Of a stretch of 64,000 nt of DNA, positions 4,239 through 14,590 are shown piece after piece. The DNA lies in the NCBI GenBank assembly GCA_039180285.1, contig JBCDDN010000001.1, forward strand, positions 19,922 through 83,921, read 5' to 3'. Position 1 is the stretch's first letter. Each line of letters opens with the position of its first letter. The DNA is from Pseudomonadota bacterium (lineage in GTDB: Bacteria; Pseudomonadota; Alphaproteobacteria; Sphingomonadales; Sphingomonadaceae). Made by a program: the position numbers and the translations under genes. The notes beneath the pieces were generated by a model. The model saw only the letters and a list, made by a program, of their open reading frames with translations, was not told the origin of the DNA and made no database searches.

Positions 4239-4658
4239 ATGGACAATGATCGCCTCGCCCGCGCAATTGCTAGGATTGAGGAAGCGACCGCCCGGATCGG
4301 CGACGCAAGGCCTCAATCCGCCCCCGCCGTCGATCAGAGCACCGAAAATGCGCTCAAAGCCGAACTCGAATCGATAAAAGCCGCGCATAAGGTGACGCTT
4401 GAGGATCGCGACCGCACAATCGCCAAATTGCGTGCGGATTTCGCCGATATCGGTAAACTCAAGGACGAGGAGATTGAACGGTTGCGCGCCGATCTTGCCG
4501 CGCGCGATACAGCCGAGACGACGACCGAGAAAACGGTACCGGACGCCGCTTTCCAAGCGTTGCAGCACAAATATGACGGCCTGCGCGCCGTCGCCGAAAC
4601 CGCGCTCGCCGATCTCGACGGGCTGATCGCCAAGGCGGAGCGCGCGGAAAATGGCTGA
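4239..4658 (+). CDS. coiled-coil protein upstream of zapA (DUF4164 / ZauP-like)
   Basis: Track ORF 4011-4658 trimmed to ATG 4239 (MDNDRLARAIARIEEA...), because the 5' extension overlaps the tkt start region. Charged heptad-like sequence. Its stop overlaps the zapA start, as for the Caulobacter gene pair. Confidence 0.6.
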   Translation: MDNDRLARAIARIEEATARIGDARPQSAPAVDQSTENALKAELESIKAAHKVTLEDRDRTIAKLRADFADIGKLKDEEIERLRADLAARDTAETTTEKTVPDAAFQALQHKYDGLRAVAETALADLDGLIAKAERAENG

Positions 4659-4956
4659 AGTCACGCTGACCATCGCCGGACACAGCTATACTGTCGCCTG
4701 TCGCGACGGCGAAGAAGAACGGTTGAAAGCGCTCAGTCAAATGGTCGACGCGAAAACCGCCGATGCGCAGAAGGCGGTGGGCGGCAACCTTGGAGAAGCC
4801 CGGATATTGCTATTCGCGGCCTTGCTGCTTGCCGACGAAGTCGACGAGTTGCGCACCAGCGGCGTGCCTGACGGGGCGATCGAGGATCTTGAGAAGCTGG
4901 CCGACCGGCTTACCGTCATCGGCGACCGTCTTGCTTCAGACAGCCGGGCAACCTAG
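4651..4956 (+). CDS. zapA: cell division protein ZapA
   Basis: 101 aa, MAEVTLTIAGHSYTVACRDGEEERLKALSQMVD..., the typical ZapA N-terminal pattern. Sits in the conserved position before the 6S RNA / 5-FCL locus. Confidence 0.8.
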   Translation: MAEVTLTIAGHSYTVACRDGEEERLKALSQMVDAKTADAQKAVGGNLGEARILLFAALLLADEVDELRTSGVPDGAIEDLEKLADRLTVIGDRLASDSRAT

Positions 4957-4961
4957 ATCGG

Positions 4962-5120
4962 AGATGGCGGGCGCTGCCCGGTACGCGCCTTTGCGAATAT
5001 CCCTGAGGCGATACAACATCCAAGGGAGCTGTCCCTGTCCGGATTGCGGGATTTGAAATAGAGTCCGGGTCCGGTGCATATGGCGCCCACCTGACGTTAT
5101 TGGCGTCAGAGGATTTTCGG
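4962..5120 (+). ncRNA. ssrS: candidate 6S RNA (ends approximate)
   Basis: About 200 nt of non-coding sequence between zapA and the 5-formyl-THF cyclo-ligase gene, the conserved ssrS position. GGCGGGCGC (4966-4974) can pair with GCGCCCACC (5083-5091), and TGCCCGG (4975-4981) with CCGGTGCA (5071-5078), giving a long closing helix around internal hairpins. A CTGACG/CGTCAG hairpin plus a U-rich run lies at 5092-5118. Confidence 0.45.
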
Positions 5121-5162
5121 GTAAACGGCCATGGCGGCCCCGCCACCCGAGCAGGCGAAATC

Positions 5163-5732
5163 ATGACGAAAACCGAATTGCGATTATGCTTTAAGAAAGC
5201 ACGGCAAGATTTTGTTTTATCAAGTAATAATGAAAGTATTTGCTCGTGCAAGCAAACGCTGTCCGAGCATATCCTGAATGCCGATATCATAAACGGCACG
5301 ATCGGCGGTTATGCTGCCATGACGTCAGAATTAGATCCCTCGAAACTGATCGAAATATGCCGCGAAAGGGGTCATCGGATTGCCCTGCCTTATTTTGAGA
5401 ATAGAGACAGCGCCATGCGATATCGGCAATGGGACGACGCGTCTTTCGAACATGGCCCCTTCGGAATTCGTCAACCGACTACGAAATGCAAAACGATCGA
5501 GCCGGACACGCTGTTGATACCGCTCGTCGCAGTGGACTTGAAAGGCAACCGATTGGGTCAAGGCCAGGGGCATTATGACCGCATTCTCGCCAGATTTCGC
5601 GCAGAAAGGCCCATCACAGCCATTGGTGTCGCCTGGACCTGCCAGATCGCCGACCGGATTCCGGTCGACCCGTGGGACGAACCGCTCGATTACATTGCCA
5701 CTCCGGACCGAATCATTAAGGTGAAGTCATGA
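5163..5732 (+). CDS. 5-formyltetrahydrofolate cyclo-ligase
   Basis: Track ORF trimmed to ATG 5163 (MTKTELRLCFKKAR). C-terminal LIPLVAVDLKGNRLGQGQGHYDR motif typical of the family. Confidence 0.85.
   Translation: MTKTELRLCFKKARQDFVLSSNNESICSCKQTLSEHILNADIINGTIGGYAAMTSELDPSKLIEICRERGHRIALPYFENRDSAMRYRQWDDASFEHGPFGIRQPTTKCKTIEPDTLLIPLVAVDLKGNRLGQGQGHYDRILARFRAERPITAIGVAWTCQIADRIPVDPWDEPLDYIATPDRIIKVKS

Positions 5733-5926: not shown

Positions 5927-5938
<12 letters not shown>
5729..5938 (+). CDS. small two-TM membrane protein (DUF2842-like)
   Basis: 69 aa with two hydrophobic helices. ATGA overlap with the upstream stop. Its 3' end overlaps the tRNA-Asp 3' end by 12 nt. Confidence 0.55.
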
Positions 5939-6003
<65 letters not shown>

Positions 6004-6287: not shown

Positions 6288-7286
6288 ATGTTGCCTATTC
6301 GGCACCGATACAGATCGCGCTTAGCGGGGCGTTTTTCGCTCTGCCTGGCCATGCTGTCGTCTGTTCTGATTGCACCGACCGCCCATGCTGCCGGTACGCT
6401 GGCCGGCACGCCGATCGAGAATACGGCAACGGCAACCTATGACGAGGGCGGCACGACGATCACGGTCGATTCCAATACGGTTTCGCTGATCGTCGACGAA
6501 ATTCTCGACATCGCCGTTTCGTCCGCCAATCCCGGTGACGTCACCGCAAGTCCTGATGAAGACGATGTCGTTCTGAGCTTCACGGTTACGAACGGTGGCA
6601 ATGGACCCGAGCCCGTGCTGCTGACGATCGATCCGAATATCGGCGGCGACGATTTCGACCCTGACACCGTGACTCTTTATATAGATACCGACGGCAACGG
6701 CAGTTACGATGCCGGAACCGACACGCTATATAGCGCCTCGACACCGCCGACCTTCGATCCCGACCAAACGATCACCGTTTTCGTTTTGGGCGATATGCCG
6801 ACCGCTGCGGATGGCGATCGCAGCGAAGTCGGACTCACCGGCACGGCAGCGACAGGAAGCGGGACACCGGGCACGGTTTTTGCCGGTCAAGGCGAGAGTG
6901 GCGGCAATGCCGTTGTCGGCGCAACCAGCGCAACGGCCAGCGATAGCGGTTTTTACGCGATCGTCGATGCCGATCTCGATCTCACCAAGACCGCGACGGT
7001 CGCCGATCCCTTCGGCGGGACGAGCCAGATCCCCGGTGCAACGATCACCTATCGGCTAACGGCCGAAGCTACCGGTTCGGGATCGCTCGACAACGTCGTC
7101 ATCTCGGACGCGATCCCCGCCGACACGACTTATGTCGACGACAGCATCACCCTGGATGGGACCGCGCTCACCGATAATTCCGATGCCGATGCTGGCGAAT
7201 TCGACGGCACGGGTATCTCCGTAGCGCTGGGTACGGTTACCGGTGGAGGCACTAATATCATTGAATTTCAAGTCGTTATCGACTGA
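6288..7286 (+). CDS. secreted two-domain DUF11 (TIGR01451 conserved-repeat) protein, putative fibre subunit
   Basis: 332 aa. Signal peptide ...LIAPTAHA|AG. C-terminal DUF11 module DLDLTKTATVADPFGGTSQIPGATITYRLTAEATGSGSLDNVVISDAIPADTTYV...IIEFQVVID-stop. Paralogous to 7840-8931. Confidence 0.8.
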   Translation: MLPIRHRYRSRLAGRFSLCLAMLSSVLIAPTAHAAGTLAGTPIENTATATYDEGGTTITVDSNTVSLIVDEILDIAVSSANPGDVTASPDEDDVVLSFTVTNGGNGPEPVLLTIDPNIGGDDFDPDTVTLYIDTDGNGSYDAGTDTLYSASTPPTFDPDQTITVFVLGDMPTAADGDRSEVGLTGTAATGSGTPGTVFAGQGESGGNAVVGATSATASDSGFYAIVDADLDLTKTATVADPFGGTSQIPGATITYRLTAEATGSGSLDNVVISDAIPADTTYVDDSITLDGTALTDNSDADAGEFDGTGISVALGTVTGGGTNIIEFQVVID

Positions 7287-7292
7287 CGGAGA

Positions 7293-7760
7293 ATGAGCAT
7301 GAAGTATCTTATCGCACTATTCGCGCTGATCGCGCCGACCAGCGCCGTGATGGCCAATCAGGTCGCGCTGGACAGCGAGGTTTTTGTGGAGCGCAGCGAA
7401 GAGCAGGCGGACGGCAGCGTCACGGTCACGCTCGACGAGCCCAACCGGGTCATTCCGGGCGATACACTGGTTTTCGTGCTCACCTACGAGAATACCGGCG
7501 CGGAACCGGCCGAAAATTTCGTCGTGACGAATCCGATGCCCGATGCAGTGGCCTTTGTCGAAGCGATCGACGGCGGTGCTGTCTATTCGGTGGATTACGG
7601 CACGACCTTCGGCTCGCTGGCCGATCTCAGAGTCTTTGGCGAAGGCGGCGTCCAGCGCGATGCTCAAGCTGTCGATGTCACACATATTCGCTGGACGCTG
7701 ACCGAGCCGATCCCGGTCGGCGCGACCGGACAACTCAGATTTCGCGGCGTCGTCAGATAG
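7293..7760 (+). CDS. small secreted single-domain DUF11-like protein
   Basis: 155 aa. Signal peptide ...PTSAVMA|NQ. One Ig-like module (VIPGDTLVFVLTYENTGAEPAENFVVTNPMPDAVAFV...GQLRFRGVVR-stop). Starts 6 nt after the previous stop and has a GGAGA Shine-Dalgarno sequence. Confidence 0.7.
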   Translation: MSMKYLIALFALIAPTSAVMANQVALDSEVFVERSEEQADGSVTVTLDEPNRVIPGDTLVFVLTYENTGAEPAENFVVTNPMPDAVAFVEAIDGGAVYSVDYGTTFGSLADLRVFGEGGVQRDAQAVDVTHIRWTLTEPIPVGATGQLRFRGVVR

Positions 7761-7839: not shown

Positions 7840-8931
7840 ATGAAAAGCATGACGAAATATCTCGTCTCTGTCAGCGGTGTAACGCTTGCGGCCTTGGCTG
7901 CGAGCCCCAGCTTTGCGCAAAACACCGCCGCCGGATCGAGCATCACGAATACGGTCACAGTCGGTTATCAAGTCGGTGGTGTTGCTCAAAATGATATCAC
8001 TGCATCCGATACGCTGACGGTTGATCGTGCCGTCAATATAGTTGTCGCCGAACTCGGCAATGCGACCACATCGGTTTCACCTGGCGAGCAGGACGCCGTG
8101 ACGACTTTCGAAGTCACCAATGAAACAAACGATTTTATCGATATTTCTTTGGCGGTATCCCAGATCGTTGGAGGAACAGCTGCCCATGGCGGCACTGATA
8201 GCTTCAACGTAGCCAACGTTGAAATCTATGTCGATGACGGCAATGGCAGCTTTGATCCAGGCGATACGCCCGTCACATTCCTCGATGAGATGGGTAATGG
8301 CGAAACGCGGCGCGTTTTTGTCGTGGCGGACGTCCCGTTAGGCCTCGCGACCGGCGATGTTGCGGATGTCGAGCTGACCGGTACAGCCCGAGAGGGCAAT
8401 GGCGGCACAACAGGTGCGCTGGGCGGCGTGATCTCCGTAGCCAGCAGCAACACGGCCGGCGAAGATACCATTTTTGCCGACAGCGATGGCGTTTTCGACG
8501 GAATCGCATTCGACGACGATGATTACACAGTGCAGGCCGCAGCGCTCTCGGCGCTTAAGGGCAGTACCGTGCTTGCCGTCAACTATCCGATCACCGGAGC
8601 CACGGAATTCTACAACATTCCGGGTGCAACGGTCGAATATTGCATCGCCGTGAGCAACGCCGCGGGCGGTGCCGCCGCGACCAATGTCGCGATTTCGGAC
8701 ACGCTGCCGGCCAACACGACCTTCGTCGGTTCGTCGATCGTGATCGGCGGAACCGCGACGATCGACGATGGCGGCACGCCCGGCAATACCGCGGACGATA
8801 CGCTGACCAGCTGCGACAATAGCGGCGGTTCGGCCGGCGGCACGTTCGCGGCCGGCACGGTTTCGGCAACTATCGGCACGGTTGCGGCCGGCGCGACCGA
8901 GATCGTGACCTTCCGGGCAACGATCGACTAA
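7840..8931 (+). CDS. secreted two-domain DUF11 protein, paralogue of 6288-7286
   Basis: Track ORF trimmed to ATG 7840 (MKSMTKYLVSVSGVTLAALAASPSFA|QN). Same architecture as 6288-7286 and same ending (...TEIVTFRATID-stop). Confidence 0.8.
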   Translation: MKSMTKYLVSVSGVTLAALAASPSFAQNTAAGSSITNTVTVGYQVGGVAQNDITASDTLTVDRAVNIVVAELGNATTSVSPGEQDAVTTFEVTNETNDFIDISLAVSQIVGGTAAHGGTDSFNVANVEIYVDDGNGSFDPGDTPVTFLDEMGNGETRRVFVVADVPLGLATGDVADVELTGTAREGNGGTTGALGGVISVASSNTAGEDTIFADSDGVFDGIAFDDDDYTVQAAALSALKGSTVLAVNYPITGATEFYNIPGATVEYCIAVSNAAGGAAATNVAISDTLPANTTFVGSSIVIGGTATIDDGGTPGNTADDTLTSCDNSGGSAGGTFAAGTVSATIGTVAAGATEIVTFRATID

Positions 8932-8942
8932 GCGGATTGAGC

Positions 8943-11900
8943 ATGGCCGCCGGACGTTCGACCGGCGGCCCGCAGCTCAAAACCATGCTTCGCTCGCTCC
9001 TCTCGGTATGTGCAATGTTTTTTGCACTATTCGCTGCGCTATTGTCGCCGGTGAGTATGGCTGCGCACGCGCAGACGATATCGAACATCGCCTATGTTGA
9101 GTGGGACGCAGGCGGCGAGCGGCGGCGCGAGCCGTCCAACCAACTTGATATCGACGTCGAACTCGTCGCCGGGACACCCCCGGAAATTGGCCTGTTCCAA
9201 TTCAGTCCCGGTGATGGCGGCGGCGCGACCGATATCATGCTTGCGGACGCAGCGAGTTGTGTCGCTATTCCACCCCATACATCGCCCGCTCTCGGCGGCA
9301 CCTATGCCGGCGTTCCGATCCAACCGGCGTCCGTGACCGGCGCGTCGGCTGTCCGTCCCGGCGAACCGTTGATCTTCGTCGTCGAGCATGGGGCCTCGAA
9401 TGCCGATCAAACCGCAATCGAAACCTATGAAATCGTTATAGAAACAGCAGAAGGCGATCGGGAGCGCCTGATCCTGACAGAGACGGAAGCAGATAGCGGC
9501 GTCTTTGCCGGCTTCATATTCACGACCGCCGTACCGCCAACGCCCACGCCGGAAGATTGCGAACTATCGGTCGTGCCCGGTTCGGAACTCCGGATCGCGC
9601 CAACCGGTGAGAACGGCCTGCGGGAGTTTACCGAACTTGCGGTCGAAGTTCTCGAAAGCTTTGGCTCCACGGTATTCGACAGCGAAACCGGCGACCCTGT
9701 AAACGGTGCCCGCGTAACGCTCGTCGACGCCGAAAGCGGGCAGCCGGCGCAGGTTTTCGGAAATGACGGCGTTTCGACATTTCCGGCAACGGTCGTAACC
9801 GGCGAACGAACGACGGACAGCCGAGGCTTTGCCTATGTGCCGGGGCCGGGCGATTTCTTCTTTCCCGTCGTACCGCCGGGCCGATACCGGCTGATCATCG
9901 AGCCGCCCGAACCCTATACGGAGATATCGCAGGCAACGCCCCAGGAATTGGCGGCTTTTGTCGATTCTCGGGGTAACCCGTACGACATCGTGACCGGTTC
10001 CTATGGCGACGCCTTCACGCTGGGCGGGATTTCGCCGATCGAGATCGACATACCGCTCGACCAGCCATCCGCACCGTTGCTGATCGAGAAAGCGGCCTCG
10101 CGCCAGCTCGCCGTGCCGGGCGACCCAATCCTGTTCAGCATTCGCGTGAGCAGCTCAGATCCGAGCCGGCCGACCCGGCCGCTGGTGATCAGCGACGAGC
10201 TTCCCTCGCAACTGCGCCTTCGCCCGGATTCACTACGGCTGGATGGAGAGCGGATTGCCGACGGAGTAGATATCGCACCCGATGGACGTAGATTTACCGT
10301 TGAAATACCGCGACTTGCGTCCGGGGCATCGGGCGTGCTGACCTATGTCACGGAAGTGCTTCCCCAGGCCCGTGCGGGCGATGCGACCAACAGCGCCCAG
10401 GCCCGCGACGACCGGGGTCAGGTCAGCAATATCGCCGACGCCACCATACGGGTCACGCGGGAGACTCTGGCGAGCCGGATGACGATCATCGGACGGATTA
10501 CCGACGGCGGATGCGGTGTCGATCCCCGTACCGCGCGCGGTGTGCCGGGTGTCCGCGTAATGATGGAAGACGGCAGTTATTCGGTCACCGACGAAGACGG
10601 CCGCTATCATTTCGAAGCCGTGATGCCCGGTTTGCACGTTGTCCAGATGGACGAATCCTCCCTTCCGCTGGACCGTGCGGCGGTCGACTGCGCGCGCAAT
10701 ACGCGATCCGCCGGACGCGCTTTCTCGCGCTTCGTCGAAGGCCAGGGCGGCGGCCTCTACCGTGTCGATTTCCGCGTCCGAGCTGTCGAGCCGCGCGAGG
10801 CCCCGGCCAATTCCGTACCCGCCATTGAGCGCCCGGAGCCGGTATCCGACGCCGAGGCGGCAGGCGCCGACCGCGATTGGCTGATCGGACAGGAACCGGG
10901 CATCGACTGGATATTCCCGGCAACCGATTACAATCCGCGCACCCGCGTTATACGGGCCGCGATCAAGCACCTTCCCGGCCAGACCGTGCAGCTGTCGCTC
11001 AACGGCAGCCCGGTTGCACCGGTCGCCTTCGAAGGTGTGCGCACCAACCCGGCCAACACGGTTTCGGTCAGCCATTGGCGGGGCATCGGAATCGAACCCC
11101 GCGAAAACCGATTGGTCGCGGAGATCCTGGATGCCGATGGCGCGGTGGTGGAAACGCTCAGCCGTACCGTACATTTCGGCAACGCGCCGATCCGGGCGGA
11201 GCTGATCCCGGAACGCTCGCGCCTGATAGCCGACGGCGTCTCGCGTCCCCTGATCGCAGTGCGGCTTACCGATCGCGACGGACAGCCCGTGCATCATGGC
11301 CTGACCGGCGACTTTGCTGTCCCCTCGCCCTACTTCCCGGCAGTCGAGGCGGACGCGCAACAGGCGCGTCAACTGGCAGGCCTCGAGCGCGCAGCGCCGG
11401 TTTGGCGTGTCGAAGGCGATGAAGGCATCGCCTATATCGAACTCGAACCGACGACGGTCAGCGGCACATTGGCCGTCACCTTCCCGTTCCGCGACGGCGA
11501 GGTCGCGCGTGAGCAGAGCATCGAAACCTGGCTTGAGCCGGGTGATCGGCCCTGGACGATAGTCGGCTTTGCAGCCGGTACGGTCGGATTCAACCATCTC
11601 GACCGCAATCTCGAAGAGATCGGCGCCGATGAGGAGACCTGGTACACGGACGCCCGGGTCGCGCTCTATGCGCGCGGACGCGTCACCGGCCAATGGCTGA
11701 TGACGATGGCCTATGACAGCGATGCCGAGCGCGACGATACGCGCTTCCAGGGCGTTATCGATCCGAACCAATATTACACCATCTACGCCGACCGCTCGGA
11801 GCGCCGGTTCGACGCCGCCAGCGTCCGCCGCCTCTATCTGCGGCTCGAGCGCCCACAATTCTATGCGATGTTCGGTGACTATGAGACCAATTTCAACGAG

Positions 11901-14108
11901 ACCCAGCTCACGCGCTACAATCGGAGCTTCAACGGCGTGCGCGCCGAATTCCGCAACGAGCGCGTTTCGGCAACCGCTTTCGCCGCGGACACGCCTTATC
12001 GATTCCGTCGCGTCGAGATCCAGGGTAACGGCCTGACCGGCCCTTATGCGATCGGCAGCACACAGCTGCTGGCGAACAGCGAACGGATCACGATCGAGGT
12101 GCGGGATCGGCTGCGGTCGAATATCGTGCTGTCGAGCCAGCAGTTGGTCCGTCACATCGACTACGACATCGACTATTTCAACGGAACGCTCCGGTTCCGC
12201 GAACCGATCCTCAGCCGCGACTCCGCGCTCAACCCGCAATTCGTCGTCGTCGAATATGAGGTCGACGGTGTGGCCGCGCGCCGAATCAACGCTGGCGGTC
12301 GTTTCACCTGGACCACATCCGACCAGCGCCTGCGGATCGGCGTCACCGCCATTCGCGACGATGATAATGTCCGCGAGACCAATATGGGCGGAATAGACAT
12401 CCGGTGGCGGCCCAACGACACGACCGAAATCCGGGCCGAGTTCGCGGCCAGCGATACCGATCCGGGGGCGAGTGCCGCGCCGACCGAAGACAATCCGGGC
12501 ACGGCCACTGCCTGGCTGGTCGAGGCCGAGCATCACAGTTCGGATTTCGACATTCTCGCCTATGCCCGCGAACAGGATGCAGACTACGGCGTCGGTCAGC
12601 TGAGCGGCGCAGAAAGCGGCACGCGCAAGTTCGGTTTCGACGGCCGGGTACGGATCGACGAACGCCTTTCGCTCGCGGCGAGCGGCTGGCACGAGAATTT
12701 CCTGACCAGCGGTGCCCGGCGTATCGCCGGCCAGGCCATGCTCGAATATCGCGGCGATACGACAGACGGTCGGGTCGGCATCATCTACAGCAATGACGAG
12801 CTGAGCGACGGCACGACGCTCGAATCGACTCTGCTCCAACTGGGTGCGACGCAGCGGCTGTTCGGCAATCGCCTGACGCTCGATGCACAGACCGAGTTTG
12901 CGCTGGACGAAGCGGAAAGCGTCGACTTCCCGGCGCGCCATCAGTTCACGGCCCGCTTCGCGGCGACCGAGTGGATTACGCTGGTCGGCGGCTACGAAAT
13001 CGCCGAGGGCGACACGATCGATGCGCGCACGGCACGCGTCGGCTTCGATCTCCAGCCCTGGTCGGGTGCGCGCATATCGCTGGCCGGCAATCAGCAGGAC
13101 ATCGCCGAATATGGTCCGCGTACTTTTGCCGCCTATGGTTTCGCGCAGTCGGTAGTGATCGACGAAAACTGGTCGATCGATTTCTCGCTCGATGGCAATA
13201 AGACGCTGAACGGCGGCATCGATCCCGATACGGTGCTCAATCCGGCCCAACCCGTCGCCAGTGGCGGCTTTGTCGGCAACGGCACCAATCCGACGCTGAC
13301 CGAGGACTTCACGGCCGTGACCGCGGGCGCGACCTACCGCGGTGATCGCTGGAGCTGGGCGGGCCGCGCAGAATATCGCGATGGCGATCGCGAGAACCGC
13401 TATGGCCTGACCACGTCGCTGCTGCGCCAGATCGGCGAGGGCAGCGCGGTCGGCGGCGCCTTCTCCTGGCTGCGCGCCGAACAGGATGGCGGCGCGACGA
13501 GCGAGATCACCTCGCTCGAAATTTCGATCGCCCACCGTCCGATGGACAGCGATTGGTCGTTCCTCAACAAGCTCGAGCTGCGCAGCGACGAGATCACCAA
13601 TGCGGTGGCCGGCCAGCCTGGCCCGGTCGGCAGCGCCCCGCTGCTCGTTTCGGGCGACCAGCGCTCGCGCCGCATCGTCAACAGCTTCTCCCTCAACTAT
13701 TCGCCGACGAGCACCGGCCTCAGCATGTTCGGCGGCGAAGACTGGCTCGACCGCAGCGAATTCACCTTCTTCTGGGGCACGCGCTATGTTTCCGACCGGT
13801 TCGGGACGGCGGATGTCGAAGGCTGGAGCAACCTCTTCGGCGCCGATGCGCGTTTCGATCTGTCCGAAACCATCGATATCGGAGCATCGGCCAGCATCCG
13901 CGAAGGCAATGGCGGGCGCGCCTGGACCTGGTCCATAGGCCCGAATATCGGCATCAGCCCCATCGAAAACACTTGGATTTCAATCGGTTACAACATTGCC
14001 GGTTTCGAAGATCGCGACTTCGAAGCGGCCCGCTACACGCGCGACGGACCCTATGTCACCTTCCGCCTGCGCTTCGATCAACAGACCTTCCGGGACCTCG
14101 GTTTCTAG
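8943..14108 (+). CDS. giant secreted protein: N-terminal strand motif, carboxypeptidase-regulatory-like domains, DUF11 domain, and a large C-terminal outer-membrane beta-barrel
   Basis: 1723-aa track ORF (TTG 8937). ATG 8943 or ATG 8985 (MLRSLLSVCAMFFALFAALLSPVSMAAHA|QT) are the likelier starts. Complete DUF11 module at about nt 10077-10454. CarboxypepD_reg-like segments at about 9663-9911 and 10479-10652. The last ~700 aa show alternating-hydrophobic strands and end ...YVTFRLRFDQQTFRDLGF. Confidence 0.8.
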   Translation: MAAGRSTGGPQLKTMLRSLLSVCAMFFALFAALLSPVSMAAHAQTISNIAYVEWDAGGERRREPSNQLDIDVELVAGTPPEIGLFQFSPGDGGGATDIMLADAASCVAIPPHTSPALGGTYAGVPIQPASVTGASAVRPGEPLIFVVEHGASNADQTAIETYEIVIETAEGDRERLILTETEADSGVFAGFIFTTAVPPTPTPEDCELSVVPGSELRIAPTGENGLREFTELAVEVLESFGSTVFDSETGDPVNGARVTLVDAESGQPAQVFGNDGVSTFPATVVTGERTTDSRGFAYVPGPGDFFFPVVPPGRYRLIIEPPEPYTEISQATPQELAAFVDSRGNPYDIVTGSYGDAFTLGGISPIEIDIPLDQPSAPLLIEKAASRQLAVPGDPILFSIRVSSSDPSRPTRPLVISDELPSQLRLRPDSLRLDGERIADGVDIAPDGRRFTVEIPRLASGASGVLTYVTEVLPQARAGDATNSAQARDDRGQVSNIADATIRVTRETLASRMTIIGRITDGGCGVDPRTARGVPGVRVMMEDGSYSVTDEDGRYHFEAVMPGLHVVQMDESSLPLDRAAVDCARNTRSAGRAFSRFVEGQGGGLYRVDFRVRAVEPREAPANSVPAIERPEPVSDAEAAGADRDWLIGQEPGIDWIFPATDYNPRTRVIRAAIKHLPGQTVQLSLNGSPVAPVAFEGVRTNPANTVSVSHWRGIGIEPRENRLVAEILDADGAVVETLSRTVHFGNAPIRAELIPERSRLIADGVSRPLIAVRLTDRDGQPVHHGLTGDFAVPSPYFPAVEADAQQARQLAGLERAAPVWRVEGDEGIAYIELEPTTVSGTLAVTFPFRDGEVAREQSIETWLEPGDRPWTIVGFAAGTVGFNHLDRNLEEIGADEETWYTDARVALYARGRVTGQWLMTMAYDSDAERDDTRFQGVIDPNQYYTIYADRSERRFDAASVRRLYLRLERPQFYAMFGDYETNFNETQLTRYNRSFNGVRAEFRNERVSATAFAADTPYRFRRVEIQGNGLTGPYAIGSTQLLANSERITIEVRDRLRSNIVLSSQQLVRHIDYDIDYFNGTLRFREPILSRDSALNPQFVVVEYEVDGVAARRINAGGRFTWTTSDQRLRIGVTAIRDDDNVRETNMGGIDIRWRPNDTTEIRAEFAASDTDPGASAAPTEDNPGTATAWLVEAEHHSSDFDILAYAREQDADYGVGQLSGAESGTRKFGFDGRVRIDERLSLAASGWHENFLTSGARRIAGQAMLEYRGDTTDGRVGIIYSNDELSDGTTLESTLLQLGATQRLFGNRLTLDAQTEFALDEAESVDFPARHQFTARFAATEWITLVGGYEIAEGDTIDARTARVGFDLQPWSGARISLAGNQQDIAEYGPRTFAAYGFAQSVVIDENWSIDFSLDGNKTLNGGIDPDTVLNPAQPVASGGFVGNGTNPTLTEDFTAVTAGATYRGDRWSWAGRAEYRDGDRENRYGLTTSLLRQIGEGSAVGGAFSWLRAEQDGGATSEITSLEISIAHRPMDSDWSFLNKLELRSDEITNAVAGQPGPVGSAPLLVSGDQRSRRIVNSFSLNYSPTSTGLSMFGGEDWLDRSEFTFFWGTRYVSDRFGTADVEGWSNLFGADARFDLSETIDIGASASIREGNGGRAWTWSIGPNIGISPIENTWISIGYNIAGFEDRDFEAARYTRDGPYVTFRLRFDQQTFRDLGF

Positions 14109-14308
14109 AGGTCCGCGCAACCCGAAACCGCGCTAAGTTCCCAAACGGTTGACACTGGTTGACACGCTCCGGGGGTACGCCCCTGGACTTTCCCCTGTTG
14201 GGGATGGCACGCCTTTCGCGATTCACTTTTCTCCTTTCCATGACGGCAGCGTCAGTGCGGAGTCTATCATGCGCGCCCAGCTGTAGGACAGGAAAAGCGG
14301 GGCCAGTT

Positions 14309-14394
14309 TTTGTCAGACTCGACCTGACCAGCCGAGCGCCGCATCGGGATTTTGTTTGTCAGACCTTCAGCTTCGCCTCACGGCGCCGCATCGG
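14309..14394. repeat. imperfect tandem direct repeat, period ~46 nt
   Basis: TTTGTCAGAC at 14309 and 14355. GCGCCGCATCGG at 14336 and 14383. Two units with conserved ends and divergent centres. Confidence 0.7.
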
Positions 14395-14398
14395 CACG

Positions 14399-14453
14399 CT
14401 CCCCCTCCTGGCCTTCCACAAGTGTACCCTGATTGGGAGGCCGGGAGGGAGAG
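14399..14453. other. long imperfect hairpin (15-19 bp stem)
   Basis: CCCTCCTGGCCTTCC (14403-14417) pairs with GGGAGGCCGGGAGGG (14435-14449) using two G-U pairs. The stem can be extended by 4 bp with one mismatch. Confidence 0.7.
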
Positions 14454-14505
14454 TGGGCTTGTGCGGAGATTTCCCGTTTGGGAAATTCCGACGAACAAAA
14501 ACCGG

Positions 14506-14590
14506 TGGTACCTCTGGCCGGAGTCGAACCGGCACTCCCGAAGGAACTCGATTTTGAGTCGAGCGCGTCTACCAATTCCGCCACAGAGGC
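14506..14590 (-). tRNA. tRNA-Leu (CAA)
   Basis: The reverse complement reads GCCTCTGTGGCGGAATTGGTAGACGCGCTCGACTCAAAATCGAGTTCCTTCGGGAGTGCCGGTTCGACTCCGGCCAGAGGTACCA. It has a long variable arm, a CAA anticodon and an encoded CCA. Confidence 0.9.

Follow-up and report, generated by a model that had tools for sequence, protein, structure and literature searches.

We analysed a 64,000-nucleotide stretch of contig JBCDDN010000001.1 (assembly GCA_039180285.1, positions 19,922 to 83,921 of the forward strand), hereafter the window, whose host is a marine Parasphingopyxis with 91% identity to a metagenome-assembled genome (MAG). In the window, four co-directional genes, here called A, B, C and D, lie between two tRNA genes. 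The subject of this work is D, the last of the four, which encodes a large mosaic protein with a predicted C-terminal β-barrel, together with the system that D may form with its three neighbours. The domain family on which this system draws, DUF11 (PF01345), has been renamed CLIPPER, and its crystal structure revealed a nine-strand CnaA-like fold in which an Asp-catalysed isopeptide bond links a Lys in strand 1 to an Asn near the C-terminus, in strand 8 (PMC12617251). The genes and the tRNAs that bracket the operon are located as follows.

5927-6003, minus strand: tRNA-Asp, the upstream bracket of the four-gene operon.
6288-7286, plus strand: gene A, 332 amino acids; signal peptide, donor hairpin (Asn45), one complete DUF11-like domain and a truncated C-terminal CLIPPER domain.
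Within 6288-7286, plus strand: C-terminal CLIPPER domain of A, predicted to stop after strand 7; Lys234 and Asp274; ends ...FQVVID*.
7293-7760, plus strand: gene B, 155 amino acids; signal peptide and a single truncated CLIPPER-like domain; no donor hairpin, Lys or catalytic Asp (VTNPMP).
7840-8931, plus strand: gene C, 363 amino acids from ATG 7840 (open reading frame from 7783); signal peptide, donor hairpin with Asn56 (numbered from the start of the open reading frame) and a middle domain.
Within 7840-8931, plus strand: C-terminal CLIPPER domain of C, truncated; Lys259 and Asp306; ends ...FRATID*.
8985-14108, plus strand: gene D, a 1707-amino-acid precursor, its start fixed by orthologues and with full-length homologues.
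14506-14590, minus strand: tRNA-Leu, the downstream bracket of the operon.

At least 60 of the 80 Sphingomonadales loci that were fetched have the genes in the order A-B-C-D, and the four-gene layout was also found in one MAG of the Pseudomonadales (Gammaproteobacteria) and on one Tara Oceans contig. Cultivable relatives with the operon include Parasphingopyxis lamellibrachiae and Parasphingorhabdus marina. An open reading frame (ORF) at 14159-14557 was considered as a fifth gene and left out of the operon: it overlaps tRNA-Leu, no family matched it, and it is unlikely to be a gene. Among 276 D-like proteins no natural fusion of A, B or C to D was found; the sole match was between the N-termini of two of them and the part of A that comprises the signal peptide and the hairpin.

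The ORF of D spans positions 8937 to 14108 of the plus strand and has 1723 codons from its mechanical start, TTG 8937, from which all residue numbers of D are counted here. A first-pass annotation, made from the letters of the sequence, had begun D at 8943. The orthologues, in contrast, start at a Met that corresponds to codon 17, ATG 8985, followed by the signal peptide MLRSLLSVCAMFFALFAALLSPVSMAAHA, its cleavage site and QTISN. The public gene call for the exact D protein (P0001, 1683 amino acids; the affected part is 8937-9059) begins at the Met of ...SMAAHA; this annotated start appears to be wrong, since the signal peptide is lost and the orthologues favour ATG 8985. Homologues of D are full-length, with 45-91% identity, and a relative of D is encoded in at least 576 species genomes of the Sphingomonadales; thus, D is not a chance ORF.

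Based on Pfam, the orthologues and an AlphaFold2 (AF2) model, D is indeed the mosaic that the first-pass annotation had described, with a signal peptide (a typical Sec signal peptide), an N-terminal motif shared with its neighbours, the named domains and barrel-like strands at the C-terminus. The N-terminal part of D, composed of an arm (residues 46-615), a linker and two immunoglobulin (Ig)-like domains, contains the following features, all on the plus strand.

8985-9071, plus strand: Sec signal peptide, residues 17-45, MLRSLLSVCAMFFALFAALLSPVSMAAHA, cleaved as ...SMAAHA/Q; from the sequence and orthologue N-termini.
9072-9164, plus strand: donor hairpin at the mature N-terminus, residues 46-76, QTISNIAYVEWDAGG...SNQLDIDVEL; homologous to CLIPPER strands 8-9.
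9084-9086, plus strand: Asn50, aligned with the isopeptide Asn and invariant in 60 homologues.
9174-9656, plus strand: Ig-like domain 1 of the arm, residues ~80-240, from AF2 strands; invariant Cys108/Cys208 pair.
9669-9908, plus strand: CarboxypepD_reg-like sandwich 1, residues 245-324; 25.5 bits and E 1.7e-5 when searched alone.
10077-10445, plus strand: complete CLIPPER/DUF11 domain, residues 381-503; triad Lys385, Asp420 and Asn485.
10479-10772, plus strand: CarboxypepD_reg/SdrD_B-like sandwich 2, best stretch residues 529-570 (nucleotides 10521-10646); invariant Cys526/Cys585.
10782-10892, plus strand: Pro/Ala-rich linker, residues 616-652; the insertion point of 1-3 OmpA-like domains in relatives.
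10899-11546, plus strand: two barrel-proximal Ig-like domains, residues ~655-870, the second with a weak Big_1/Invasin_D3 signature; presumably periplasmic.

The mature protein starts with QTISNIAYVEWD, directly after the signal peptide. In the whole of D, Pfam matches were limited to CarboxypepD_reg (38.7 bits against a cut-off of 32.3), DUF11 (25.0 bits against a cut-off of 24.6, profile positions 2-113 of 114) and SdrD_B. These matches bear out, with slightly different limits, the carboxypeptidase-regulatory-like sandwich placed earlier at about 9663-9911, the complete DUF11 repeat placed at about 10077-10454 and the second β-sandwich placed at about 10479-10652, which is a second copy of CarboxypepD_reg. 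The arm has two invariant Cys pairs, and its best structural matches were shaft and basal pilins of Gram-positive bacteria, such as BcpA and EbpB.

The feature that ties D to its neighbours is the hairpin. In A, B and C, the match between the C-terminal DUF11 domain and the Pfam profile ends at positions 68, 71 and 84 of 114, respectively, with scores of 24.7 for A, 29.1 for B and 23.1 for C (33.1 for its isolated domain) against the cut-off of 24.6. Among the orthologues listed, 30 for each protein, the stop codon stands right behind the last kept strand, in the forms ...TFQVxID*, ...FRGxV[KR]* and ...FRVT[IV][DN]*. As judged from these alignments, the terminal CLIPPER domain of A, of B and of C breaks off after strand 7 and lacks the last two strands, while A, C and D begin, directly past the signal peptide, with the missing two-strand hairpin; B has no donor hairpin. 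The hairpins of A, C and D align with strands 8-9 of the complete CLIPPER domain of D itself, with an invariant Asn, and their orthologue consensus sequences are AAGTxAGTxIxNxAxAxY...SN.V (A), ...ITNxVTVxYxVGGV... (C) and AQTISNxAxxxWDxGG...SNRVD (D). The N-terminal motif that the first-pass annotation had called donor-like and shared is therefore homologous to the last two CLIPPER strands, exactly those that the neighbours miss, and it is conserved in the orthologues of all three proteins that carry it.

When the mature N-terminus of A, C or D was appended to a truncated domain, the Pfam match reached positions 97-110 of 114 and the score increased in all seven combinations, whereas reversed or shuffled donors scored 2.7-5.6 bits below the real hairpins. 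PDB searches with DUF11 segments, whether isolated or fused, failed to retrieve 9IFR, the entry of a CLIPPER adhesin of Acinetobacter silvestris.

The residues of the isopeptide bond follow the same division. The internal CLIPPER domain of D holds the full triad (Lys385, Asp420 and Asn485) with spacings similar to those of 9IFR; the bond itself is predicted. In A and C, the Lys and the Asp lie inside the truncated domain, and the Asn is found solely in the N-terminal hairpins. The Lys and Asp of the acceptor domain are present in at least 90% of 65 orthologues of A and in all correctly extracted orthologues of C, and the hairpin Asn, which aligns with Asn485 of D, is conserved in the orthologues of A, C and D. 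Thus distributed, the triad is divided between neighbouring polypeptides, as in engineered split-isopeptide tags. B has neither the Lys nor the catalytic Asp (VTNPMP). The motifs ...VTNP.P... and ...DVTH[IV][RK]W... are conserved in all orthologues of B, although the reactive residues and the donor hairpin are absent, and B is a candidate for a distal cap or for a reversible strand-capping chaperone.

The C-terminal part of D was modelled with AF2 from residue 524 to residue 1723 on an alignment of 60 sequences. The model had a mean predicted local distance difference test score (pLDDT) of 74.9 and a predicted template modelling score of 0.64, with the barrel strands mostly at pLDDT 75-90, and it defines the following features.

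11556-14078, plus strand: C-terminal β-barrel region, residues 874-1714; six strands, an insert and 32 more strands, the last being GPYVTFRLRF.
11724-11933, plus strand: segment that AF2 leaves unplaced, residues 930-999, YYTIYADRSERR...LYLRLERPQFYA; pLDDT 23-37.
12024-12221, plus strand: sandwich insert past the sixth predicted barrel strand, residues 1030-1095, EIQGNGLTGPY...HIDYDIDYFNGTLRF; candidate plug or gate.

Residues 874-1714 were modelled as a nearly unbroken β-meander of strands of 10-20 residues with hydrophobic/polar alternation and mostly short loops, in the order of three strands (874-927), the unplaced segment (930-999), three strands (1000-1029), the sandwich (~1030-1095) and 32 strands. 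This prediction corresponds to a barrel of about 850 amino acids with about 36-38 wall strands, which we infer to form one closed barrel. Ushers have 24 barrel strands and TonB receptors have 22; the predicted barrel of D is therefore well beyond the size of either. The passenger-then-barrel order that had been proposed from the sequence is correct, while the barrel, estimated then at roughly 700 amino acids and likened in size to that of an usher or a TonB receptor, is larger on both measures.

No Pfam family matched residues 822-1723 of D, even at E≤10, no NCBIfam model matched the C-terminal ~900 amino acids, and a PDB sequence search returned no relative either for whole D or for a nine-sequence barrel profile. 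The likeness to an usher, an autotransporter or a TonB receptor suggested in the first-pass annotation has, in these searches, no counterpart in sequence kinship. The Foldseek comparison that it had recommended, run with the barrel model against the PDB, matched only generic large or giant barrels (SlpA, SprA, MtrB, LptD and BtuB, and also FhuA and OprC), SlpA being the best, at TM-scores of 0.1-0.3 and 7-10% identity; no usher was among the top 50 matches. The matches support the barrel fold class and assign no family. A barrel-only profile searched against 1.84 billion proteins retrieved 3,968 clusters at 50% identity, in which the barrel is full length and the regions N-terminal to it range from ~100 to 2,200 amino acids. 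The barrel is C-terminal in the family members scanned except P0175 and P0246. P0175 carries tetratricopeptide repeats and a small outer-membrane-protein barrel behind the main barrel, possibly as the result of a gene fusion.

Conservation in D peaks at residues 865-1104, with 2.5-3.3 bits per column in most 20-residue windows, compared with 1.0-2.8 (mostly 1.6-2.4) in the remainder of the barrel. Residues 945-1004, which make up the C-terminal two thirds of the unplaced segment, reach 2.9-3.3 bits per column and are among the most conserved of the barrel region. The segment 930-999 may need a partner in order to fold, and could serve, for example, as a latch, a plug or a site where subunits dock.

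The orientation of D in the envelope can be approached through its relatives. Among ~156 more distant family representatives (P0121-P0276), 79 carry 1-3 OmpA-like domains, and in 76 of these 79 the domains lie N-terminal to the barrel, at the position of the D linker (residues 616-652) in pairwise alignments. Pfam confirmed OmpA in P0144, and P0172 is another relative with an N-terminal insert. Two full-length proteins, P0246 and P0276, have the OmpA-like domain C-terminal to the barrel, and P0274 is a 529-amino-acid fragment without a barrel. OmpA-family domains bind peptidoglycan; hence, with the inserts at the linker position, the linker would be expected to lie in the periplasm, together with the two Ig-like domains behind it. 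The simplest topology would place the barrel in the outer membrane, the proximal domains and the wall anchor of the relatives beneath it, and the arm back up through the lumen.

Taken together, these features are best fitted by a model in which D is the basal subunit, the anchor and the outer-membrane portal of a sortase- and usher-independent surface fibre built from A, B, C and D, a model to which we give an even chance of being right. The suggestion of the first-pass annotation that D could be the cell-proximal anchor of a fibre, and perhaps its pore, thus agrees with the best-fitting model; of its interpretation as a whole, the domain order, the donor strand and the anchor or pore idea stand, and the barrel size and the kinship with known barrels do not. 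In the proposed fibre, subunits would be linked head to tail: each N-terminal hairpin would complete the C-terminal domain of the next more distal subunit and so recreate the geometry of a stalk of tandem CLIPPER repeats. Since B only accepts, it would be the distal cap; A and C would be shaft or adaptor subunits, since both donate and accept; and D would form the base and terminate the chain, since it only donates and its own CLIPPER domain is complete. Because the Asn comes from the donor, and the Lys and Asp come from the acceptor domain in A and in C, these junctions are probably locked by a spontaneous intermolecular isopeptide bond.

At the cell surface, the C-terminal 850 amino acids of D would form a single outer-membrane barrel of ~36-38 strands, the two Ig-like domains and the linker before it would remain in the periplasm, and the N-terminal arm of ~570 amino acids would make a U-turn and run up through the lumen of its own barrel. 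The barrel would then be a sheath as well as a conduit, with a single polypeptide tying the fibre to the envelope. The conserved first six strands, the unplaced residues 930-999 and the sandwich at residues 1030-1095 are the candidate gate or assembly site.

Several observations weigh against this model, which is computational throughout, drawn from sequence and predicted structure. A search for expression evidence found the D sequence in DNA metagenome runs only. The profile-score gains obtained by appending hairpins are modest, and T/V-rich decoys sometimes lengthen the match too; these tests support the split-domain model, but not decisively. At the Pseudomonadales locus (L081), the isopeptide Lys is replaced by Met in the homologue of A (6372-7505); the homologue of C keeps both Lys and Asp. 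The covalent lock is therefore not universal: some junctions may do without the bond, and locking may differ from one junction to another. The D of the window has no OmpA domain of its own. In a mean-field direct-coupling analysis of barrel closure, run on 342 family sequences (effective number ~212), the top couplings were mostly gap or alignment artefacts, and the positive control failed, in that neighbouring barrel strands were not recovered. That the barrel closes, how many strands it has exactly and where the arm runs are all predictions. Finally, the hairpin of D has a pLDDT of ~80 in the monomer model and may pack in cis on the first domain of D, and insertion in trans is argued from topology alone.

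This last point carries the most substantial rival, which we consider unlikely. In it, D would be a self-contained outer-membrane protein without a fibre, either an autotransporter-like fibrillar adhesin or an SlpA/OmpM-like tether between outer membrane and peptidoglycan, A and C would be two-domain monomers closed in cis, as in the discontinuous CnaA-type domains of Gram-positive pilins, and B would bind the N-terminus of D or fold alone. Isopeptide domains assembled from N- and C-terminal segments are indeed known, for example GBS104-like_Ig (PMC12617251). The folding of the D hairpin in the monomer model (pLDDT ~80), the best Foldseek match (SlpA, itself an outer membrane-cell wall tether) and the peptidoglycan-binding OmpA-like domains of many relatives are also as expected of such a protein. 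Closure in cis is, however, less likely on topological grounds. In A and C, no linker separates the hairpin from strand 1 of the middle domain, as at the junction of a tandem repeat, and the termini of a nine-strand sandwich lie at opposite ends, so that hairpin and acceptor should be at opposite poles of the subunit. Additionally, D has a hairpin and no truncated domain of its own as acceptor, B is truncated and carries no hairpin, and the four genes occur together, in the same order, in the loci examined.

A second rival, to which we assign a still lower probability, retains the fibre and makes D an usher-like platform, whose N-terminal 830 amino acids would all be periplasmic and whose hairpin would transiently cap or prime the subunits, the fibre being extruded and then released or held non-covalently. 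Since no PapD-like chaperone is encoded, another protein would have to shield the open grooves, and D could do so. The plug of PapC and FimD is inserted between strands 6 and 7 of the usher barrel, and the sandwich of D, past the sixth predicted strand, would occupy this position. The OmpA-like domains ahead of the barrel in relatives place part of the N-terminal region in the periplasm, and the conserved disulfide pairs would suit folding there. Ushers, however, are neither related to D in sequence nor among its top-ranked structural matches, and the arm of D resembles stalk and pilin modules rather than the usher N-terminal domain. Moreover, if the conserved isopeptide Asn of the D hairpin is reactive, capping would be irreversible and hence terminal, not catalytic.

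That the barrel serves as a large channel for solutes or proteins and has nothing to do with the DUF11 proteins next to it, with the Ig-like domains as a periplasmic or surface binding module, seems to us very improbable: Foldseek does also match the transport barrels BtuB, FhuA, OprC and LptD, but at TM-scores of just 0.1-0.3 and with no hit to a TonB-receptor Plug or barrel family, and the strict operon linkage and the hairpin motif common to D, A and C speak against it.

Compared with known systems, the fibre model combines traits of several. It shares with the chaperone-usher pili (PapC/FimD) an incomplete Ig-like fold that is completed by the N-terminal extension of the next subunit (deduced here from the genes), a distal member without a donor strand (B), a proximal member unable to accept (D) and, in the predicted structure, a large outer-membrane barrel with a sandwich inserted after about six strands. 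Nevertheless, no Usher, PapC_N/C or PapD family hit and no chaperone gene were found: in Pfam and NCBIfam, the matches of A, B and C are confined to DUF11-type families, and there is no PapD-like chaperone in the operon. The donor would here be a two-strand hairpin with an isopeptide Asn, the subunits have the CnaA/CLIPPER fold, the barrel is predicted to have ~36-38 strands instead of 24, and the terminating subunit and the barrel are one polypeptide. An assignment of D to the outer-membrane ushers (PF00577, PapC_N/PapC_C) was rejected on the lack of a family match and of a PapD-like chaperone.

The sortase pili (BcpA, EbpB/EbpC and SpaA type) have CnaA/CnaB-type isopeptide domains and covalently joined tip, shaft and basal subunits, and it is their pilins that match the arm of D best. 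In contrast to them, the present system has no sortase, LPXTG signal or pilin motif, its bond would form autocatalytically within a split domain and not by transpeptidation, its host is a diderm and it includes an outer-membrane barrel. No sortase gene lies between the flanking tRNA genes, and A, B and C end in ...VVID*, ...GVVR* and ...ATID* with no LPXTG or hydrophobic tail; they were accordingly rejected as sortase-dependent pilins. The system is thus chaperone-usher-like in the logic of strand complementation and sortase-pilus-like in its covalent CnaA-type subunits, and the defining tests of both classes came out negative.

Donor-strand complementation followed by an intermolecular isopeptide bond, termed 'exchange and lock', has been reported for the archaeal threads of Sulfolobus (PMC9715654) and for BsaA, a TasA-family protein of Clostridium perfringens (10.1101/2024.11.04.621531). 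Residue conservation and profile completion suggest the same combination here. The subunit folds and families are unrelated, the hosts of those fibres are archaeal or monoderm, with no outer-membrane component, and no basal subunit is fused to a membrane barrel there. Closer in domain content are the CLIPPER/DUF11 fibrillar adhesins, such as B9T28_05395 of Acinetobacter silvestris (PDB 9IFR), which share the domain family, the Lys-Asp-Asn triad and the tandem Ig-like stalk, as well as an OmpA-like anchoring domain, present in the Acinetobacter protein and in many relatives of D. These adhesins, however, are single polypeptides with intramolecular bonds, whereas here the stalk seems to be split into genes inside a domain and the anchor would be a giant barrel.

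Among the giant barrels, SprA (the translocon of the type IX secretion system), SlpA (Deinococcus) and MtrB (the sheath of MtrA) have a similar number of strands to that predicted for D and are its top Foldseek matches, and the D barrel may sheathe a membrane-spanning protein as MtrB does MtrA. The TM-scores to these proteins are 0.11-0.30 at 7-10% identity, and there is no sequence relationship; partners and operon also differ. D was rejected as an SprA/SlpA-type giant barrel (TM-scores of 0.11-0.25, 7-10% identity and an empty PDB profile search), and as a TonB-dependent receptor (no Plug or TonB_dep_Rec hit and TM-scores of 0.12-0.27 to BtuB and FhuA). The type Va autotransporters resemble D in having an N-terminal passenger and a C-terminal barrel in one Sec-exported chain, but theirs is a 12-strand barrel of the Autotransporter family with an α-helical linker, neither of which is found in D, and D would have periplasmic domains between arm and barrel. 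With no Autotransporter hit, ~38 predicted strands and no helix before the first barrel strand, D was rejected as a classical autotransporter.

No published description of this operon or of the barrel turned up in our literature searches. We rate the A-B-C-D system as new, and we infer its mechanism beyond the sequence features. A more demanding claim, about which we are more doubtful than confident, is that it represents a previously unrecognised class of diderm pilus, in which pieces of a CLIPPER stalk, cut inside a domain, are joined by hairpin complementation and a spontaneous isopeptide lock, in the manner of a natural SpyTag/SpyCatcher chain and without sortase, usher or chaperone. The resulting fibre would be extruded through one protein that also ends it and is covalently bound to it; the ~38-strand barrel of this protein would rank with the largest known single-chain barrels, and in many lineages the protein would bind peptidoglycan too.

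If the fibre model is correct, it would describe a Gram-negative route to covalently linked surface fibres that dispenses with sortase and chaperone-usher machinery, and a direct test case for how a folded, cross-linked polymer passes through the outer membrane while coupled to the cell wall. Neither Pfam nor NCBIfam has a model for the 850-amino-acid barrel family, although ~4,000 clusters of it (50% identity) occur in Alpha- and Gammaproteobacteria; it would represent a new machine of the outer membrane, with a barrel among the largest formed by a single chain. The split CLIPPER junctions would provide natural and orthogonal pairs for peptide-protein ligation, which would be of interest to biotechnology. 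Should the fibre model fail, a conserved core operon of the Sphingomonadales envelope still gains its first functional hypothesis.

Two observations concern the surroundings of the operon and its variants. Upstream, a 6S (SsrS) RNA was identified at 4968-5144 on the plus strand (47.2 bits against a gathering score of 46.4), between zapA (4651-4956) and a 5-formyltetrahydrofolate cyclo-ligase gene (5100-5732), which is the classical zapA-ssrS-ygfA arrangement; this block lies upstream of the operon in many Sphingomonadales loci. On one metagenome contig (L083, 183-3894), the N-terminal regions of A, C and D are scattered over several short ORFs, probably through frameshifts or assembly errors, and an additional CLIPPER-rich protein of 1318 amino acids is encoded downstream of D.

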